Assembly: GCA_009885285.1 (NCBI GenBank)
Contig: VFKX01000007.1
Location: 5,046 to 69,045, forward strand
DNA from: Candidatus Falkowbacteria bacterium
GTDB taxonomy: Bacteria > Patescibacteriota > Patescibacteriia > Patescibacteriales > UBA12465
Direction: 5' to 3'
DNA: 64,000 nucleotides
The notes beneath the pieces were generated by a model. That model was not told the DNA's origin and did not search any database. It worked only from the letters and a program-made list of their open reading frames with translations. Every line of letters starts with the position of its first letter. The stretch's first letter is position 1. Positions 4,848 to 58,651 of the stretch are shown here, one piece after another. A program made the translations under genes and the position numbers.

Positions 4848-5405
4848 TTATTTGGTATCTTTTTTAAACGGGAAGCCCATCAAGCGGAAAAGCTCCAAAC
4901 CTTCAGCTCTGTTCTTAGCGTTAGTCGCCAAGCAAACTTCTAAGCCGAAAATATTGTCAACTTCTTCTGCATGGATTTCCGGAAAACATGTATAATCCTT
5001 GAAACCGATAGTCATGTTTCCTTCTCTGTCTAAACCTTTTTCAGAGATACCGCGGAAGTCGCGAACGCGAGGGAAAGTAATATTTACCAGCTTATCGATA
5101 AAATCATACATCTGCTGGCCGCGTAAAGTGACCTTAGCGCCGATCACCAAGCCTTCTCTGATTTTAAAGGCAGAAATAGATTTCTTGGCGGCGGTCATCA
5201 CCGGCTTCTGGCCGGCAATCTTAGTCAGGGCTTTTTCCACGCCGGCGACAAATTCTTTTTCCTTAAGATGATGTCCGAAGCCAATGTTAATAACTACCTT
5301 AGTTAAACGAGGCACGAGCATGTTATTCTTAAATCCGAATTTCTCCTTTAATTCCGGAACGATAGATTTTTGATATTTTTCTCTTAATTTCATAGAATTA
5401 CTCAA
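4848..5405 (-). CDS. rplE: 50S ribosomal protein L5
   Basis: 185 aa, L5 family, operon position. Confidence 0.9.
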   Translation of the reverse strand: MSNSMKLREKYQKSIVPELKEKFGFKNNMLVPRLTKVVINIGFGHHLKEKEFVAGVEKALTKIAGQKPVMTAAKKSISAFKIREGLVIGAKVTLRGQQMYDFIDKLVNITFPRVRDFRGISEKGLDREGNMTIGFKDYTCFPEIHAEEVDNIFGLEVCLATNAKNRAEGLELFRLMGFPFKKDTK

Positions 5406-49088: not shown

Positions 49089-50159
49089 ATGAAAATCGGA
49101 TTAATCCATAACCTATACGGAGCCTATAGCCATGGCGGCGCTGAGACGGCCGTCAGTATGATGGCGGCAGATTATCGCACAGCCGGACACCAGGTTTTTA
49201 TTATTAGCAGCCGTCCAAAAAAACCATCAGAAAAAACAGATGAAGCCTGTTCAGAAAAAGTCTATTATCTTAGCTCGGAATTCTATAATCTCAGTCGCCA
49301 TTCCCTCGCCTATCGCGCTCTCTGGCAAATCAGCAATCTCCTGGCTGTCGGCAAAGCCCGGCAACTTAGAAAAATTCTAAAAAGCGAAAAGCCAGACTTA
49401 ATCATTACCCACAACTTAATGGGTATCGGCTTCCTCACACCTCGCGTCATCAAGAAATTAAAAATTCGCCATGAACATTTCCTCCATGACATCCAGCTTA
49501 TCCATCCTTCCGGACTAATGATCTGCGGCCAGGAAAAAAAAATTGATGCCTGTCCGGCTAAGATTTATCAGTCCTTAACCCGCCCCCTTTTCTCCTCTCC
49601 AGCCAAGGTAATTTCGCCCTCAAAATGGCTAATGGAAATACATAAGAAATACGGCTTCTTCAATGATTCTGAACAAGAAATCAGGCCCTTTGTCTGGCCA
49701 TATAGCTCGAGTGCCAGAAAAGAGGTCAGGGTAGCAGCCCAAAATTTTCTTTTTGTCGGCCAAGTGGAATCACAAAAAGGGATATTTCTGTTGATTAGTG
49801 CCTTCAAAAAAATAAATAATCCGGACCTAACTTTAACGATTGCTATTCGCGGCGGAGGCGCCAGCCTGGCAGCTGCCAAAGAGTCAGCTAAAGACGACGC
49901 CAGGATTATATTTCTCGGCCCATTATCATATGAAGAAACAGCTAAGATTATGTCGAAGAGTGATTGCTTAATCCTACCTTCCCTTTGCTATGAAAACTCT
50001 CCAACCGTGATTTACGGTGCTCACGCCGCTGGCTTACCTGTCATTGCTAGTCGTCTCGGCGGAATTCCGGAACTGATGGGCAAGGGTGACATGCTATTTG
50101 AGCCGGGAGATGAAACTGATTTGCAGAACAAAATAATTGAAATAAGTAAAAATAAATAA
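49089..50159 (+). CDS. family 4 (GT-B) glycosyltransferase
   Basis: C-terminal GT1/GT4 domain (ENSPTVIYGAHAAGLPVIASRLGGIPE). 356 aa. Confidence 0.8.
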   Translation: MKIGLIHNLYGAYSHGGAETAVSMMAADYRTAGHQVFIISSRPKKPSEKTDEACSEKVYYLSSEFYNLSRHSLAYRALWQISNLLAVGKARQLRKILKSEKPDLIITHNLMGIGFLTPRVIKKLKIRHEHFLHDIQLIHPSGLMICGQEKKIDACPAKIYQSLTRPLFSSPAKVISPSKWLMEIHKKYGFFNDSEQEIRPFVWPYSSSARKEVRVAAQNFLFVGQVESQKGIFLLISAFKKINNPDLTLTIAIRGGGASLAAAKESAKDDARIIFLGPLSYEETAKIMSKSDCLILPSLCYENSPTVIYGAHAAGLPVIASRLGGIPELMGKGDMLFEPGDETDLQNKIIEISKNK

Positions 50160-50172
50160 TGCCTACTTAAAA

Positions 50173-50196
50173 GCACCGAAAAATTCGGTGCTTTTT
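50173..50196. terminator. bidirectional intrinsic terminator (GCACCGAA-aaa-UUCGGUGC plus UUUUU)
   Basis: It lies between the convergent GT4 (+) and the surface protein gene (-). Confidence 0.55.
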
Positions 50197-50218
50197 AATA
50201 TCATTTCCTCACACTCCG

Positions 50219-52144
50219 CTAATTACTAACGCGATAACGCCAGAAAGCAGAGCTGCCATTGCCCTGGCGGCCGTAAAGATATCCATTGGCATAGACCAGC
50301 GATCCTCCCCACCTGACATTGGCCGGAACAGACGACAAAGCAACCCAAGTTCCAGTATCAATAGCAAAGCGCCAGAAAGAAGGGGTATTATTCCCCTGAA
50401 AAGCATAAATATAGTTGCCACCAGTATAAGCCATTGAAGATCCCGCGTTAACATTTCCTAGGGCCGGCGTCGAGGTACTCCATATGTTATTAGTAACTGA
50501 GTAATGATAAAAAATTGCGTTATTATTCCCCGCTAGAGCATAAAGGTTATCCCCTCCGGCATAAGCTAATTCGCTCCACATCAAGTTGGCCGGAGCTTGA
50601 GCTATCGTTGTCCAATTTGCCCAAGTATTTGTAGGAATAGAGTAGCGGAAGACGGTTTTCGTGCCGCCCTGTCTCACATAGATATAATCGCCGCCGCCAT
50701 AAACAGCATGACCACCGATACCAAGGTTATAATCAGCATCAGCCATGGCTGCCCACGAATTACCAGAAATAGAATAACGCCAGAATGTCTTAGTCGTATC
50801 TCCTCTAGTTACATAAATAAAGTCTCCGCCAGCATAAACAGAGGATGTATAATTCTTGAAAGTATCTGGCGCATCTGTCATACGGGTCCAAGAATTACCC
50901 GAAATAGAATAACGCCAAAACTCCTTAGTCAAGTCAGCTCCCCCGGAATAAATATAGTCGCCGCCAGTATAAACTAAGCGAGGCACGCCATTATATACAG
51001 GCGACCCTGGAATATTCGTTAAAGTCGCCCAAGCGGCCTGATTAATGCCGGAACTATACGCAATGCCCGAACCATGAATATTCGTAGCTGTCACCTTTAT
51101 CGTAATGGTTGAGCTAGCCAGTAATTGAGTCAGGGCTAGCGTAGTACCAGTAGCACCGGATATATTACTTCCATTGGATAGCCATTGATAAGCATAGCTT
51201 AAATTAGAAGGATAAGCACTCCAACTGCCAAAAGAACTGATTAAAGTTTCGCCCGCTAGCAAAGACCCACTAACTACCGGTAAGGAAGTATTTGTTGGAG
51301 ATTCTTCTCTTGATAAGAAACCGTTTTGTCCATAAATAAAGATATGTTTACCGCCGGCCGAAGATTCTGCGTTATCCGCTGCCAATTCCGCAAACATAAC
51401 TCTGGCATCAGCATGGCCATTTAAAACCGGAATAACTCGACCGATAGAATAATCTTCGCCTTCAATAATCTTGGTTCCGCTTGACCAAGTGCCTGCAACG
51501 GAACGCTCCTTCAACATAATTTCACCATCCAAAGGAAAAGATTCGGTCCGCCAATTAACCGGCCAAGGATCAGCGTAATATAATTGAATAACGCCAGTTG
51601 GCAGTAAGACAGGAGCAAAGACATCATAGCGGGCCGCAGTGGTCGCCACCACCTCCGGCGCGGACCAGCCCGCTCCAGTGTCATACATATACATGATATT
51701 AAACGGCCCAGTATTCGGCCCAACGCCAAAGAAAACATGCGCTCGATTATTACCGTCTAGAAACCATACCGGAATATCCGTTCCTTTATCCGTTCCCAAG
51801 TGCTCATAAAGCATATAATCAGCATCTGCTTCCATTCTATCCACCGGCAAGTCGGCCGCCAATGTAGACACTGAACCGTCATAACTTAAAACGTCTCCGG
51901 TGACTGTATCATAACGAAAGAAATACACATTTTCTCTTTCCGTATCGACACCTGGACTCTCTTGGGCAATAAACCAGATTTCCGTCCCGACTGCCAAAAA
52001 ATTACCAGCATAAACCCTATTAACTTGAGGTGATTCATTCAAATTAACAATAATCTCCTCAGAACCCCAAGTCGCCACTCCATTACTTAGAGATGTTGTT
52101 TTCCTTAACGCCAAGCTTGCTACCCCTCCGGAACTGCGGCGCAT
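50219..52144 (-). CDS. surface protein, C-terminal segment: Ig-like region plus six Kelch-like beta-propeller repeats
   Basis: Six tandem repeats containing FWRYSISGNSW...YAGGDxIY. There is no signal peptide of its own. It is in frame with the upstream ORF. Confidence 0.6.
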   Translation of the reverse strand: MRRSSGGVASLALRKTTSLSNGVATWGSEEIIVNLNESPQVNRVYAGNFLAVGTEIWFIAQESPGVDTERENVYFFRYDTVTGDVLSYDGSVSTLAADLPVDRMEADADYMLYEHLGTDKGTDIPVWFLDGNNRAHVFFGVGPNTGPFNIMYMYDTGAGWSAPEVVATTAARYDVFAPVLLPTGVIQLYYADPWPVNWRTESFPLDGEIMLKERSVAGTWSSGTKIIEGEDYSIGRVIPVLNGHADARVMFAELAADNAESSAGGKHIFIYGQNGFLSREESPTNTSLPVVSGSLLAGETLISSFGSWSAYPSNLSYAYQWLSNGSNISGATGTTLALTQLLASSTITIKVTATNIHGSGIAYSSGINQAAWATLTNIPGSPVYNGVPRLVYTGGDYIYSGGADLTKEFWRYSISGNSWTRMTDAPDTFKNYTSSVYAGGDFIYVTRGDTTKTFWRYSISGNSWAAMADADYNLGIGGHAVYGGGDYIYVRQGGTKTVFRYSIPTNTWANWTTIAQAPANLMWSELAYAGGDNLYALAGNNNAIFYHYSVTNNIWSTSTPALGNVNAGSSMAYTGGNYIYAFQGNNTPSFWRFAIDTGTWVALSSVPANVRWGGSLVYANGYLYGRQGNGSSAFWRYRVSN

Positions 52145-52189
52145 GAAAAGATAAATGCTATTTCCGACTACAACCGGATGAGGATAAGT

Positions 52190-53302
52190 TTATCCGCCGG
52201 TGATAGGAGTTGAAGAAGCCCAGGAGCTAAAGTCATTAGGGGCGCTGGTTACCGCATACTGCATACTGCCCCCGTGAGCACCCCCAAATAAATGACCGTA
52301 GCCTTGGTAGTCCTGAACCATAGCTGGAACGCCGTGATCATCACTGATTAAAGTTGTAATTCCACTATCAACAATCGGACCGAATGTCTCCGTGGTATGA
52401 TTATAGGTAGAAACTTGAGCCTGGCGCCGGCCATCCGCGAAAGCCTCCCAGGCAAAAACGGTAGTATCTAAAGAATTTATATAAAATGCGGCCTCCCTAA
52501 TAGATCCAAACAAAGGAATAGTAGCCCCATTGTCAGCCACCGTACCAACTTCTGAAACGCTGGGAATATGACTAGGAGTCGGACTGTCATCCTCATTCGA
52601 GGACTGAGAAGAACCGCTGGGCGGAGCATACTTAAAAGGATCGTATGATAAGCTTAAGCCGCAGGCAACTTTAATATTCTTAATATCATGACCATTGATA
52701 TTACCAGTATTCAAATAGGTATAGCATTTCTGATCTGGATGACCAGTCAAAACAGAAATATTGTAACTGGCTCCGTCGGATATCCTTGACGGAAAAACAA
52801 AGTTAGCGCCGTCACTCGGCATAATAACTAGAGAGTCTCCGTTATTATTCAACAAGGTAACCGAACCGACTAGGCCGGTAATACTACCGCCAATAGAGTA
52901 CGAAGGGGCAGTTATAGCCGCAAATGCCTGGATAGCCTTAATCACGAATTCACTAATTTTTCTTTCAGCTATTTTCCGGTTAATTATTGCTCTCGTGACT
53001 GGACCAAAGAAACCTCGGGCCGAAGTTATCCCTTGAGATTTTTGAAAAGAGGCCAAGGCCTGCTTAGTTAACGCGCCAAAATATTCAGTTTCTTTGCCAG
53101 GTGAGCCAGCACCTGATTTAGATATTAGAAAATTATTACTATTCAGGAATTTTTGCAATTCCTTAACATCAATCCGAGTATCACCCGCCTTAAAATTACT
53201 ATTAAAAACAAAAGCCTGGGCTGCCGAACCAGAGAATAGTAGCCAAGTCAGGATAATGAAAAGTATTATTTTTCTTTTTATAATCAGAGAAACTTTAAGC
53301 AT
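52190..53302 (-). CDS. surface protein, N-terminal segment: signal peptide plus peptidoglycan-binding domain
   Basis: Signal peptide (LFIILTWLLFSGSAAQA) and a PG_binding_1-like region (DVKELQKFLN...YFGALTKQALASFQKSQG). It ends at a TAA that is in frame with the next ORF. Confidence 0.6.
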   Translation of the reverse strand: MLKVSLIIKRKIILFIILTWLLFSGSAAQAFVFNSNFKAGDTRIDVKELQKFLNSNNFLISKSGAGSPGKETEYFGALTKQALASFQKSQGITSARGFFGPVTRAIINRKIAERKISEFVIKAIQAFAAITAPSYSIGGSITGLVGSVTLLNNNGDSLVIMPSDGANFVFPSRISDGASYNISVLTGHPDQKCYTYLNTGNINGHDIKNIKVACGLSLSYDPFKYAPPSGSSQSSNEDDSPTPSHIPSVSEVGTVADNGATIPLFGSIREAAFYINSLDTTVFAWEAFADGRRQAQVSTYNHTTETFGPIVDSGITTLISDDHGVPAMVQDYQGYGHLFGGAHGGSMQYAVTSAPNDFSSWASSTPITGG

Positions 53303-53325
53303 AAAGACATACTGACAGATTTGTT

Positions 53326-54355: not shown

Positions 54356-56389
54356 TTATTGATTATTAATTCTTATTAGACCAACATTTACGCCGCCGTT
54401 AAAGCGCTCTTCCCAAGCATAGAAAGATTCTATTAATACGCCAGTACTGCTAAAAACTCGAACATGTGGAGCCGCTCCGGCCGCGGCCGCCGTGATAATT
54501 TCAGGCAAACCATCATTATCTAAATCACCGGCTGATATGTTTACCCCGCCCTGCCAATTAATGCTATAGGCTAAAAATTGCCGCAATAAAATGCCGCGGT
54601 TACTATAGACCTTCACCATGGGGTCGCGTCCTTTTCCAGGAGTAACGATTATATCCGCGCGATTCCGATCCTTCCGGCCATTAAGACTGGCTACGGCCAC
54701 CTTAACCCCTCCACGAAATTTCTTTTCAAAAGCCAAGAACGCGCCAACAGCTTTTCCCTTATTATTAAAAATTTTAATCTGCGGTTCAGACCCGGCGCCA
54801 TAGGCGACGATAATTTCCTGATCGCCATTGCCATCGACATCGCCGGCTGCCAAATTCAAGCCCCCGCGCCAGAATTTACTGTCCGCCAAGAACTGCTTTT
54901 GCAACTGACCTCCATTATTAAAAATTTTAATATTACCAGTGCCTTTAGTTGCTTGTGCCACAGCAATTTCCATCTGCTCGTCGCCATCCAAATCCACTAA
55001 AGCCACACTCAAACCTCCTCGGAAATTTTTTTCAAACGCCAGAAAACGCTTGAGCAGCTCGCCTTGATTATTGTAAATTAAAATTTGCGGTTCAGTGGAG
55101 GCGCCCGATCCGACAATAATTTCGTCTTCGCCGTCACTATTAATATCACCGGCCACAATACTTTCCCCGCCTTTAAGATCAAGGGGAATAAATTCAACCA
55201 AATCCCCAGTCGCCGCCGTCAATTTTGCCGGACGGTTCTTGGTCGCGCTCTGTGGCGCCACAATTAAACGACCCACTCTGCTATATAATTTATCTTTAGC
55301 CATTTCCACAGCCCGATCAACATTTAGCCGGCCATTACCGAGCTGACCAGGATAGTCAGGATTAAGGCGGTTAACATTATCAGTGGAGGCGAACAAAATA
55401 TTAACAATTTCCCGGCGGCTTAATTCAGGGTTAGCTTGGGCAATCAAGGCTAAAGTGGCGGTTACCTGAGGGGCAGCCATGGACGTGCCCGACCAATAAC
55501 CGTCATAAAGCTTATTCGGATCTTCCTTAATACTACCGGCTGTCACAGCGCTAAAAAAACTAATGCCTGGCGCAATTAGGTCAACACATCTTGAACCATA
55601 ACTGGAAAACTTCGCCTTTTGATCAAGGGCATCGCTAGCGGCTACGCCAATCACCATATTTTCTCCAATCAGTTCCCCGTCATAACAAGCCGGATAAATC
55701 GGAGTTTTTTCAATATCATAACCGACACCATCTGCCTGTTCATTTCCAGCTGCTGCCACAATAATGACGCCGGCCTTATGAGCCCGGCGAATCGCTTCTT
55801 GCATGCCGTCGCTATGATTAAATGAAACGAAGCTTAAATTAATAATATCAGCGCCGTTATTAATAGCGTAATCGATCGCTCGAATCACGTTGCTTAATTT
55901 CCCCTCGCCCTTATCATTTAAAACTTTTAAAGCCATAATCTGCGCCTGCCAAGTGACGCCAGCCACACCTTCGTTATTATTACCTTGAGCGGCGATGACA
56001 CCAGCCACCATTGTCCCATGAGAAACGCCAGCTTCAGTCCAGCCAGACAAAAACTTCGGCGACGGATCAGGTAAGTTAGAAACAAAATCCCAACCGTTTA
56101 CATCGTCAATAAAACCATTGCGGTCATCATCGATACTATTGTCCGGTAATTCCCGCTTGTTATGCCAGATATTTTCTTTAAGATCGGGATGGCTAATTTG
56201 AATTCCCGAGTCAATCACGGCAATAACGATATCCGGACTGCCGGAAATCTTATCCCACGCGCTATCAGCTTTAATCTTTGATAAATACCATTGATTACCA
56301 TAGAAAAAATCGTTCGGCTTAATATTAGCCAAAACGGGCTCTGCGAAAAAGAGCGAAAGTATAAAAAAAGATGTTATGATTTTTCTCAT
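54356..56389 (-). CDS. secreted subtilisin-like (S8) serine peptidase fused to a C-terminal FG-GAP-like beta-propeller
   Basis: Signal peptide. Catalytic triad contexts D (AVIDSGI), H (HGTMVAGVIAAQG) and S (GTSMAAPQV). About seven FG-GAP repeats (GDxDGDG...EIIV). Start set at the MRKIITSFF Met. Confidence 0.8.
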   Translation of the reverse strand: MRKIITSFFILSLFFAEPVLANIKPNDFFYGNQWYLSKIKADSAWDKISGSPDIVIAVIDSGIQISHPDLKENIWHNKRELPDNSIDDDRNGFIDDVNGWDFVSNLPDPSPKFLSGWTEAGVSHGTMVAGVIAAQGNNNEGVAGVTWQAQIMALKVLNDKGEGKLSNVIRAIDYAINNGADIINLSFVSFNHSDGMQEAIRRAHKAGVIIVAAAGNEQADGVGYDIEKTPIYPACYDGELIGENMVIGVAASDALDQKAKFSSYGSRCVDLIAPGISFFSAVTAGSIKEDPNKLYDGYWSGTSMAAPQVTATLALIAQANPELSRREIVNILFASTDNVNRLNPDYPGQLGNGRLNVDRAVEMAKDKLYSRVGRLIVAPQSATKNRPAKLTAATGDLVEFIPLDLKGGESIVAGDINSDGEDEIIVGSGASTEPQILIYNNQGELLKRFLAFEKNFRGGLSVALVDLDGDEQMEIAVAQATKGTGNIKIFNNGGQLQKQFLADSKFWRGGLNLAAGDVDGNGDQEIIVAYGAGSEPQIKIFNNKGKAVGAFLAFEKKFRGGVKVAVASLNGRKDRNRADIIVTPGKGRDPMVKVYSNRGILLRQFLAYSINWQGGVNISAGDLDNDGLPEIITAAAAGAAPHVRVFSSTGVLIESFYAWEERFNGGVNVGLIRINNQ

Positions 56390-56424
56390 ATAACATCTTA
56401 ATACTAACATATTCCCATTATAAT

Positions 56425-57657
56425 TTACAGGCTCTTGATCAGATCCAAAGTCTCCTCAGCGCAGCGGCGCCAGCTAAACTTTTTAACCTGCTCCAAGCCC
56501 TTAACAATCAGGGTTTGACGCAAATCCTCGTCGGTAAAGATCCGCAACAACGCTTCCGCCATTGCCACCCTATCATGATGATCAAAATACAAAACTGCCT
56601 CACCAGCCACTTCCCGCAGCACGGGCAGGTCTGAAACAGCTGTCGGAATGCCGCAAGCCAATGCCTGCAGAACCGGAATACCGAAGCCCTCATGTTTAGA
56701 AGGAAAAACAAAGGCGGCGGCGGCATTTAAAATATAAGGTAAGTCATCTTCAGCCACCCAACCCGGCATAATAACACCATCATTTAAATCAAACTCTTCA
56801 ATAATATATTTTATCTCATCGTAGCCGAAACCGGCATCACCAATCAACACCAGTTTAGCTTTAATTTCCGGATGAGTCTCTTTCAAATAACCGAACGACT
56901 CCACGAGTGCCGGGATATTTTTCTTTTTTTCTAAACGGCCGACATACAAAAAGAATGGCGCCTCTATCGCATACTTGTCCAAAATAGCCGCCGTTTTCTC
57001 CGGCGATACTTCTAGGCGGCGATAAATCTTATCATTATAACCATTATGGATAACTCTAATCTTGTCGGCTGTAATCTTGCCAGGGTAAAGACTGAGGATA
57101 TCCTGCTTCGTAAATTCGGATACAGCAATGATTTTTTTAGCATGGCTCAAGGAAAAAGCTGTCGACCAATAAAGGTAGTCCACTGAATCACTGTGATATC
57201 GTCCGAAAGTTAAAACTTTGACTAAAAAATTTATAATATTCCTGGTGCCGACCAGGCCGGTTTTCACTTTCGTCGGCCGGTAAAGATTATGCTCCCGGAC
57301 GAAGGCGACATCATGGATAGTATTAACTGTCCGACGCGGACCGAAAAGTGGCAAGGCATGAGCCGGAATAAATAAAACATCGGGGCGCCGCCACAACATT
57401 TCTAGAGTCAAGCGGCCTAAAGTCCAAAAGGAATAAAATGGCCAATGCAAAAACTTAATTGAGAAATTCGGATTGCTCTTCACAATCGCCAGCAGTTCTG
57501 GCCGAGGCTCTTGATTCACATACAGCCAATAGATATTTTCTTTATCAATTTCCGCCAGATTCTTAATCACATAAAAAGAGTACCATTCGGTGCCGGTTTT
57601 ATGAAGCAGATTAGCGCGTGATGCATCAATGCCGATGATCATATTACTTGGTTGCAA
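56425..57657 (-). CDS. family 4 (GT-B) glycosyltransferase
   Basis: EGFGIPVLQALACGIPTAVSDLPVLREV motif region. 410 aa. Confidence 0.8.
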   Translation of the reverse strand: MQPSNMIIGIDASRANLLHKTGTEWYSFYVIKNLAEIDKENIYWLYVNQEPRPELLAIVKSNPNFSIKFLHWPFYSFWTLGRLTLEMLWRRPDVLFIPAHALPLFGPRRTVNTIHDVAFVREHNLYRPTKVKTGLVGTRNIINFLVKVLTFGRYHSDSVDYLYWSTAFSLSHAKKIIAVSEFTKQDILSLYPGKITADKIRVIHNGYNDKIYRRLEVSPEKTAAILDKYAIEAPFFLYVGRLEKKKNIPALVESFGYLKETHPEIKAKLVLIGDAGFGYDEIKYIIEEFDLNDGVIMPGWVAEDDLPYILNAAAAFVFPSKHEGFGIPVLQALACGIPTAVSDLPVLREVAGEAVLYFDHHDRVAMAEALLRIFTDEDLRQTLIVKGLEQVKKFSWRRCAEETLDLIKSL

Positions 57658-58651
57658 GAATACTGCGTTTATATGAATCTAAATTATCCAAAGCAATGCC
57701 TGTGCCTTTAGCCACGCAGAGCATGGCGTCATCGGCGACGTAAGCCGCCACTCCGGTCGTCCGGGCAATTAATTGATCGATATTGCGGAGCAAAGAGCTA
57801 CCGCCAGTCAAGACAATGCCTTTATCCATAATGTCAGCTGATAATTCAGGCGGTGTTTTCTGCAAAACTTTCTTAGCTGCCGCAATGATTGCTTCCAGTT
57901 CATTCTGAATCGCTTCAGTCACGTCATCGCTCGACACGGTCAAACTACGCGGCAGGCCGGTGACAATATCGCGGCCGCGAATTTCCAGATACAATTTATC
58001 TTCCATGTATAAGGCCGAGCCGATACTTATTTTAATCTCTTCCGCTGTCCGCTCGCCGATGGCTAAATTATATTTCTTACGAACATACTCTAAAATAGCC
58101 GCATCAAATTTATTGCCACCCACGCGGACTGAGGTCGAGGCGACGATGCCGCCCAATGAAATAACCGCCATTTCGGCAGTCCCGCCGCCGATATCAATTA
58201 CCATATGCCCAGTAGCCGAGCCGATCGGAATATCCGCGCCAATAGCCGCAGCTACCGGCTCCTTAATGATATAAGCGGCTTTGGCTCCAGCGGCGATAGT
58301 CGCTTCAATAACTGCCCGACGTTCGGTTGAAGAAATACCAGCCGGTACAGCCACCATCACCTCCGGCCGAAAAAAGCGGATGCCGCCTAAAGTCTTATTA
58401 ATAAAATACCGAATCATCGCTTCAGTCGCCCGATAATCCGCAATTACTCCGTCCTTAAGGGGACGGACCGCCATAATCGTATCCGGCGTCCGACCAATCA
58501 TATCTTTAGCCTCATTACCGACAGCCAAGATCTTCTTATCAGCGATAGAAACGGCCACCACGCTCGGCTCATTAATAACAATGCCGCGCTTAGGCAGATG
58601 GATAAGGGTGTAGGTTGTGCCGAGATCGATACCGATTCTTTTAATAAACAT
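57644..58651 (-). CDS. mreB: rod-shape-determining protein MreB, paralog 2
   Basis: Actin-fold motifs (GIDLGT, DIGGGT, LTGG). 335 aa. Confidence 0.85.
   Translation of the reverse strand: MFIKRIGIDLGTTYTLIHLPKRGIVINEPSVVAVSIADKKILAVGNEAKDMIGRTPDTIMAVRPLKDGVIADYRATEAMIRYFINKTLGGIRFFRPEVMVAVPAGISSTERRAVIEATIAAGAKAAYIIKEPVAAAIGADIPIGSATGHMVIDIGGGTAEMAVISLGGIVASTSVRVGGNKFDAAILEYVRKKYNLAIGERTAEEIKISIGSALYMEDKLYLEIRGRDIVTGLPRSLTVSSDDVTEAIQNELEAIIAAAKKVLQKTPPELSADIMDKGIVLTGGSSLLRNIDQLIARTTGVAAYVADDAMLCVAKGTGIALDNLDSYKRSILATK

Follow-up and report, generated by a model that had tools for sequence, protein, structure and literature searches.

The question raised by this locus is whether one in-frame stop codon separates two genes or interrupts a single one. 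The locus lies in a stretch of 64,000 nucleotides (nt), here called the window, of contig VFKX01000007.1 of a Candidatus Falkowbacteria bacterium (positions 5,046 to 69,045). On the minus strand of the window, two open reading frames (ORFs), 52190-53302 (370 aa) and 50219-52144 (641 aa), are annotated as separate proteins in the public record. A preliminary description of the sequence had listed three options, namely a recent nonsense mutation or sequencing error in one large gene, programmed readthrough of the stop, and a true split into two modules, and it had leaned to one original gene. We found that this lean was justified. Because the stop falls within a single domain and continuous homologues carry tyrosine (Tyr) at the site, the comparisons strongly support the view that the two ORFs are halves of one gene, broken by a change of one base. 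This gene is called the target gene below.

The reading frame and its domains

Translation of the listed ORFs placed both of them in the same frame. Between them lie a single TAA, at 52192-52190, and a further 45 nt in frame that lead up to the ATG of the second ORF. The junction reads …ITGG*TYPHPVVVGNSIYLF-MRRSSGG…, or more widely …SSTPITGG*TYPHPVVVGNSIYLFMRRSSGG…, where the asterisk marks the stop. The ORF coordinates, the shared frame and the separation by TAA plus 45 nt had all been described before, and translation reproduced each of them. As a whole, 50219-53302 gave 1027 codons with only one internal stop, at codon 371. The frame 3′ of the stop is intact over 656 codons, of which the downstream ORF itself makes up 641.

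The fused protein comprises, in order, a signal peptide, a PG_binding_1 domain, a linker or beta-rich region, a PL25-like BNR_4 propeller, an Ig-like domain and a six-repeat Kelch propeller (Table 1). In the Pfam scan of the fused sequence, BNR_4 (PF15892) matched residues 287-520 (E = 7e-12, 45.7 bits against a cut-off of 27.3), and this match spans the stop. Kelch models matched between about residues 790 and 1000, and the same scan gave no match in the Ig-like region (51038..51304). The signal peptide, the peptidoglycan-binding domain and the six Kelch-like repeats had been noticed in the preliminary description; they are present as judged by eye, by Pfam and by the repeat count, respectively. 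The layout given there was correct, but it missed the BNR_4 domain that spans the stop at residue 371. Similarly, the downstream piece had been described as an Ig-like region plus Kelch blades. Both modules are present, but about 295 residues of the interrupted PL25-like domain had been omitted.

A first search with the domain returned 23 non-self homologues at 26-40% identity. All 23 were continuous across the site without any insertion or deletion, and in the column of the stop they had Tyr (13 cases), Gln (3), Val (3), Gly (2), Leu (1) or Thr (1). Closer relatives emerged when the 656 residues that follow the stop were used in an exhaustive HMMER search. Protein P0037 (790 aa; Logan SRR31020829, locus L031) showed 49% identity over 780 aa, aligned without gaps at the site and had Tyr there, encoded by TAT. 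It has the same BNR_4, Ig-like and six-Kelch layout as the target gene, but it is continuous and has no peptidoglycan-binding domain. P0043 (1390 aa) matched the 656 post-stop residues in one stretch at 42% identity and had Phe at the site. It also shares the BNR_4, Ig-like and six-Kelch layout, whereas it is continuous, lacks the peptidoglycan-binding domain and carries a long N-terminal extension with a weak match to a tail-fibre family. In P0048 (1296 aa; ENA contig k141_954154, locus L030), the identity reached 68% over a domain of 423 aa, with Tyr at the site encoded by TAC. Like the target gene, P0048 contains the whole PL25-like domain including the YLFMRR strand, is secreted and lies amid glycosyltransferase and epimerase genes. 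Unlike the target gene, it is continuous, comes from a genome of 65-67% GC, and has cadherin-like and Calx-beta flanks instead of the peptidoglycan-binding, Ig-like and Kelch modules.

Across all homologues the residue at the site was Tyr, Gln, Phe, Ser, His, Gly, Val, Leu or Thr, that is, always a sense codon. None of the homologues retrieved is split at or near the stop point. A comparison with orthologues had been proposed as a check of the preliminary description; among the homologues retrieved the ORF was continuous in each case, and none of them is divided with an export signal on the second piece. As the target gene uses TAT 47 times and TAC nine times for Tyr, a change from TAT to TAA would be the simplest history and is the most likely one. 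No paralogue of the target gene was found in the window. Scans of genome_contigs and metagenome_contigs gave no relative of the fused domain, and the window's own contig is not among the species representatives. We also noticed that the 641-aa ORF 50219-52144 (P0025) is filed under the representative P0026, an unrelated 47-aa JGI protein, which may explain its absence from the first homology search.

PL25 enzymes carry a BNR_4 domain (PMC13193363). The subfamily profile matched the PL25 ulvan lyase PLSV_3936 (PDB 5UAM/5UAS), a seven-bladed propeller of known structure, with E = 3.6e-23 along its full length (residues 14-453 of the 5UAM chain), and the single-sequence match to 5UAM was found in fragments (phmmer E = 4.1e-10). 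The catalytic residues of PLSV_3936 are His123, Tyr188 and Arg204, the last of which is charge-neutralising (PMC13193363); the chain numbering of the 5UAM alignment is offset by 24 from the residue numbering of that paper. All three have identical counterparts in the target gene (Table 1). The same is true of two binding residues, His143 (His343 here, 5′ of the stop) and Tyr246 (the Tyr of …NRVYAGN…, 3′ of the stop). The His323 column is invariant in homologue alignment A1 and the Tyr373 column is nearly invariant among the homologues. The stop splits the catalytic residues, with His on its 5′ side and both Tyr and Arg on its 3′ side.

The likeness to PLSV_3936 is not complete. The four ligands of its structural Zn site, His208, His264, Cys266 and His278, correspond to Gly, Trp, Ile and Val here, an assignment that is our reading of the alignments, the direct pairwise alignment covering the first position only. 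By the same reading, Asp and Val stand in place of the binding residues Asn122 and Lys125. Aligned directly, the two proteins show little similarity (E = 4e-10, in fragments). In addition, the target gene belongs to a non-marine-looking genome of the candidate phyla radiation (CPR), has peptidoglycan-binding, Ig-like and Kelch modules, and is broken. Because the Zn ligands of PLSV_3936 are not conserved, we call the encoded protein PL25-like and do not claim that it is an ulvan lyase. Judged from its sequence, the intact protein would be expected to act as a lyase.

These positions also bear on a functional split, in which the N-terminal piece would be anchored to peptidoglycan, the C-terminal piece would be translated on its own, and the two would work as separate proteins and possibly reassemble. 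It is true that an ATG follows 45 nt after the stop and that the public record lists a separate protein for each ORF. However, the cut falls in the middle of one beta-propeller and parts the catalytic His from Tyr and Arg. The downstream piece has no signal peptide, its ATG is the internal conserved Met of the YLFMRR strand, and no relative is divided at or near the site. A true modular split, which had been one of the initial options, is contradicted by these results, and we consider it very improbable. A site scan found no promoter- or terminator-like site at the junction, and in the promoter scan no promoter-like site was seen immediately 5′ of the downstream ATG on the minus strand. The lack of a Shine-Dalgarno sequence before this ATG is uninformative, as most genes in the window have none. 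More generally, most of the 59 long ORFs in the window show no Shine-Dalgarno-like motif and have A/T-rich leaders.

Table 1. Coordinates of the interrupted gene and of the features within it (window positions; residues numbered on the fused protein)
Feature	Position	Strand	Basis
Ancestral gene of 1027 codons, interrupted by TAA	50219..53302	-	Translation, Pfam, alignments to P0037 and P0048
Putative Sec-type signal peptide, residues 1-30 (MLKVSL…SGSAAQA, followed by F)	53213..53302	-	Read by eye from the translation
PG_binding_1, residues 45-106	52985..53170	-	PF01471, E = 9.5e-8, 32.6 bits against a cut-off of 23
PL25-like / BNR_4 beta-propeller, residues ~259-666, cut by the stop at 371	51305..52528	-	PF15892, 5UAM match
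His323 (DDHG), counterpart of His123 of PLSV_3936, 5′ of the stop	52334..52336	-	5UAM alignments
Small hairpin around the stop, at chance level	52174..52201	-	Folding, window base rate
In-frame TAA, codon 371; Tyr in closest relatives, most likely TAT to TAA	52190..52192	-	
Tyr373 (TYPHP), counterpart of Tyr188 of PLSV_3936, two codons past the stop	52184..52186	-	5UAM alignments
ATG opening the downstream ORF, internal Met387 of the conserved YLFMRR strand	52142..52144	-	P0048 also has YLFMRR
Arg388 (LFMRR), counterpart of Arg204 of PLSV_3936, codon directly after the downstream ATG	52139..52141	-	5UAM alignments
Ig-like domain (…YAYQWLSNG…), residues ~667-755, bounds approximate	51038..51304	-	Alignment with the same region of P0037
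Six-repeat Kelch-type propeller, residues ~770-1027	50222..50995	-	Kelch_6 E = 1.7e-9, other Kelch models, repeats readable

Decoding of the stop codon

Programmed or regulated readthrough of UAA, aided by a hairpin, would give a short peptidoglycan-anchored product together with the full-length enzyme. The stop does lie in frame within a small hairpin, and the frame downstream of it is intact over all 656 codons. The use of stop codons in the window argues against this explanation. TAA ends 49 of the 59 genes (83%), TAG six and TGA four, and the context TAA-A, as at the site, is found at 10 normal gene ends. The neighbouring epimerase gene stops at TAA and has the same length as its orthologues. 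Eight junctions of the type long ORF, stop, long ORF are present in the window. Only the one in 50219-53302 falls inside a domain, and the other junctions checked are ordinary gene borders that are present in relatives too. An alternative genetic code was rejected, given the predominance of TAA among the gene ends and the lack of any other in-domain stop in the window.

The hairpin consists of a 5-bp inner stem, a 4-nt loop and a 4-bp outer stem, with a folding energy of -8.7 kcal/mol. The preliminary description was right that a hairpin exists, but the form drawn there, a 6-bp stem with a 2-nt loop, is sterically impossible, and the structure is not beyond chance. Its z-score was -2.9 in the hand-picked 28 nt, -0.7 in 66 nt and -0.6 in 121 nt. 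In segments of 28 nt, 270 separate loci of the window fold at least as well, covering 15% of its bases, and more than a dozen equally stable loci lie within the target gene. With the ancestral TAT, the five inner pairs still form; therefore, the hairpin is independent of the stop. Its position around the stop is coincidental. Rfam gave no match at the stop. A role of the SECIS (selenocysteine insertion sequence) or riboswitch type was rejected, as the stop codon is the wrong one, no Rfam family matches and the hairpin is at the base rate. Elsewhere, a sub-threshold Rfam match to the rimP leader was seen at the 3′ end of the target gene (50150-50227, minus strand; 26.3 bits against a gathering threshold of 47, E = 0.28), which is probably due to chance.

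In the known cases of bacterial recoding, selenocysteine is inserted at UGA with a SECIS element and pyrrolysine at UAG, UGA is read as Gly in Gracilibacteria/Absconditabacteria, and a leaky UGA gives the A1 protein of phage Qbeta. These cases resemble the present one in having an in-frame stop with a nearby hairpin. They differ from it in that the codon is UGA or UAG and the stop or its element is conserved in relatives, whereas here the codon is UAA and the relatives have a sense codon. SECIS-type recoding in particular is confined to UGA, which also counts against readthrough. No tRNA gene was found in the 64-kb window, and hence no suppressor tRNA in the window. All continuous homologues have a plain sense codon, so that there is no conservation of the stop, and the short product would end in the middle of the propeller without an obvious use. 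In summary, TAA is the main terminator here, its context is ordinary, the hairpin does not exceed chance and the RNA families gave no match. Programmed readthrough found no support in these data, and it seems to us a highly unlikely explanation.

It would be just as surprising if the UAA were read, perhaps by near-cognate tRNA-Tyr or tRNA-Gln, at a rate that is low yet sufficient for function. A readthrough product, if made, would span …ITGG-X-TYPHPV…, that is, ITGG-[Y/Q]-TYPHPVVVGNSIYLFMR. The cell would then contain mostly a short wall-bound fragment and a little of the full-length lyase-Kelch protein, and functional readthrough of UAA would thereby be seen for the first time in a CPR bacterium.

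Mutation or error

We compared the two halves of the target gene with its homologues. Taking the 13 closest homologues of the first search, we considered the columns in which at least 90% of them agree; of these columns, the target gene has kept 13 of 14 upstream of the stop and 35 of 39 downstream of it. Identity to each homologue was 0.31-0.42 upstream and 0.33-0.41 downstream. Neither half contains a second stop or a frameshift. As both sides are equally conserved and no second lesion is present, the change must be recent, or else it is not real. What was found is one in-frame stop within a region that aligns gap-free to intact homologues, as in a pseudogene. We consider a real and recent nonsense mutation, or a null allele, to be the likelier explanation.

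Several points weigh against this conclusion. Two independent Logan assemblies of the same organism, L001 and L002 (SRR8670878 and SRR8670877), contain the flanking genes and are 100% identical to the window in the overlap, but they fall short of the TAA by about 680 nt and about 1100 nt. Exact look-ups of the products (370 aa, 641 aa and a guessed 236-aa partial product) found no independent assembly across the stop. A flawless downstream frame of 641 codons is also what would be expected if the gene were intact in the cell. In addition, CPR genomes are streamlined and usually have few pseudogenes.

The alternative suggested by these points is an artefact of sequencing, assembly or consensus calling. 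The organism would then have an intact gene of 1027 codons with Tyr at codon 371, and the TAA would reflect either a miscalled base or a minority variant that became fixed in the consensus of the metagenome-assembled genome (MAG). A change of one base would restore a sense codon in keeping with the homologues. Elsewhere the gene shows no flaw, and its downstream part is as conserved as the upstream part. The source is a metagenome-assembled contig (NCBI, 71,173 nt). The Logan assemblies of the same organism break just upstream of the stop, which suggests low coverage or strain variation there, and neither Logan run has a record of the 370-aa product. On the other hand, no comparable defect was seen in any other gene of the 64-kb window, and substitution errors are rare in a short-read consensus. 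We regard an artefact as possible but distinctly less probable than a real mutation.

On the preferred explanation, a nonsense mutation in one gene, the intact gene would have encoded a secreted peptidoglycan-binding protein with a PL25-like (BNR_4) propeller of the polysaccharide-lyase type, an Ig-like domain and a Kelch propeller. One substituted base would have turned a Tyr codon into an ordinary stop within the catalytic propeller, TAT to TAA being the likeliest change, and the sequenced gene would represent either a pseudogene of very recent origin or a null allele that occurs in the population. The 370 residues before the stop would still be exported and might bind peptidoglycan, although of the propeller they would include only the first part, without the catalytic Tyr and Arg. 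If translation restarted at Met387, the resulting protein would have neither the export signal nor the first blades nor the catalytic His. We infer that a genuine mutation, not an error, underlies the stop and that both fragments are inactive. As the target gene is an accessory one, its loss is probably tolerable.

Insertion site, relatives and implications

The surroundings of the target gene were compared with 24 related loci, which were found via the neighbouring epimerase gene. Where their record titles are informative, they name Candidatus Falkowbacteria or Patescibacteria. Most of them have the gene order subtilase-like gene, epimerase gene, convergent glycosyltransferase genes, and the spacing between epimerase and glycosyltransferase is usually 10-120 nt where both are present. 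In the window, this spot (50160-53325) holds the 3.1-kb target gene. At the syntenic site, a relative of the target gene was found in none of the 24 loci. Unrelated cargo occupies the same gap in three relatives (L010:11018-12410, L015:11018-12080 and L025:5952-9784), namely a membrane-like protein of 388 aa, a pair of ORFs of about 140 aa each and small genes that together span 3.8 kb. Because it is absent from all 24 loci and other genes sit in the same gap in three of them, the target gene is a lineage-specific single-gene insertion at a variable spot. Its GC content at third codon positions is 0.37-0.39, against 0.42-0.51 in six neighbouring genes. It is an accessory gene, probably acquired horizontally. 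As a single-gene insertion at a variable spot, it is probably also dispensable.

Some other features of the neighbourhood were observed. The upstream neighbour (54356-56410) appears by eye to encode a 684-aa secreted subtilase-like protein with FG-GAP/VCBS-like repeats, with 51-82% identity in all relatives. A 335-aa protein at 57644-58651 seems unusually constrained, having 92-98% identity in nearly all related genomes against 55-80% for its neighbours. Loci titled 'uncultured Gammaproteobacteria bacterium' (L004, L007, L012, L013, L016-L021, L023, L025-L027) share the gene order of the Falkowbacteria/Patescibacteria MAGs. Their epimerase shows 63-84% identity to that of these MAGs, and the titles look like placeholders or wrong taxonomy.

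The relatives of the PL25-like domain occur in two kinds of setting. The first is a phage tail or gene transfer agent (GTA)-like tail module (L028:320-11077, also L029), which contains P0009, a BNR_4 homologue with 36-37% identity over the whole domain that is present on at least 24 contigs. In L028 the order is tape measure, DUF2460, Phage_BR0599, Phage-tail_3/Rcc01698_C, DUF2793, BNR_4, muramidase. Unlike the protein of the target gene, the P0009 proteins have about 480 aa, no signal peptide and no Kelch module. PL25-like proteins of the P0009 type are probably virion-associated. The Ig-like region of P0037 matches PHROG families of virion structural proteins; a PHROG scan of the neighbours of P0037 was uninformative. 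The second setting is a GC-rich exopolysaccharide cluster (L030:1-19891), in which P0048 adjoins a heparinase II/III-like gene and is accompanied by glycosyltransferases, methyltransferases, Epimerase_2 and asparagine synthase. The 68% identity of P0048 to the target gene's domain, despite the very different GC contents, suggests that the PL25-like domain was transferred fairly recently.

For annotation, these results mean that a single entry, marked as an interrupted gene (or corrected), should replace the two hypothetical proteins given for the ORFs. They do not change what is known of translation or recoding. In this lineage, the convergent gap between epimerase and glycosyltransferase appears to be a recurrent landing site for accessory genes. 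A Falkowbacteria-like CPR genome has probably acquired there a wall-anchored protein of the PL25-like lyase type, whose relatives are found in phage tail modules and exopolysaccharide clusters. The gene adds to the BNR_4 / PL25-like family a member with an unusual host and an unusual combination of domains.

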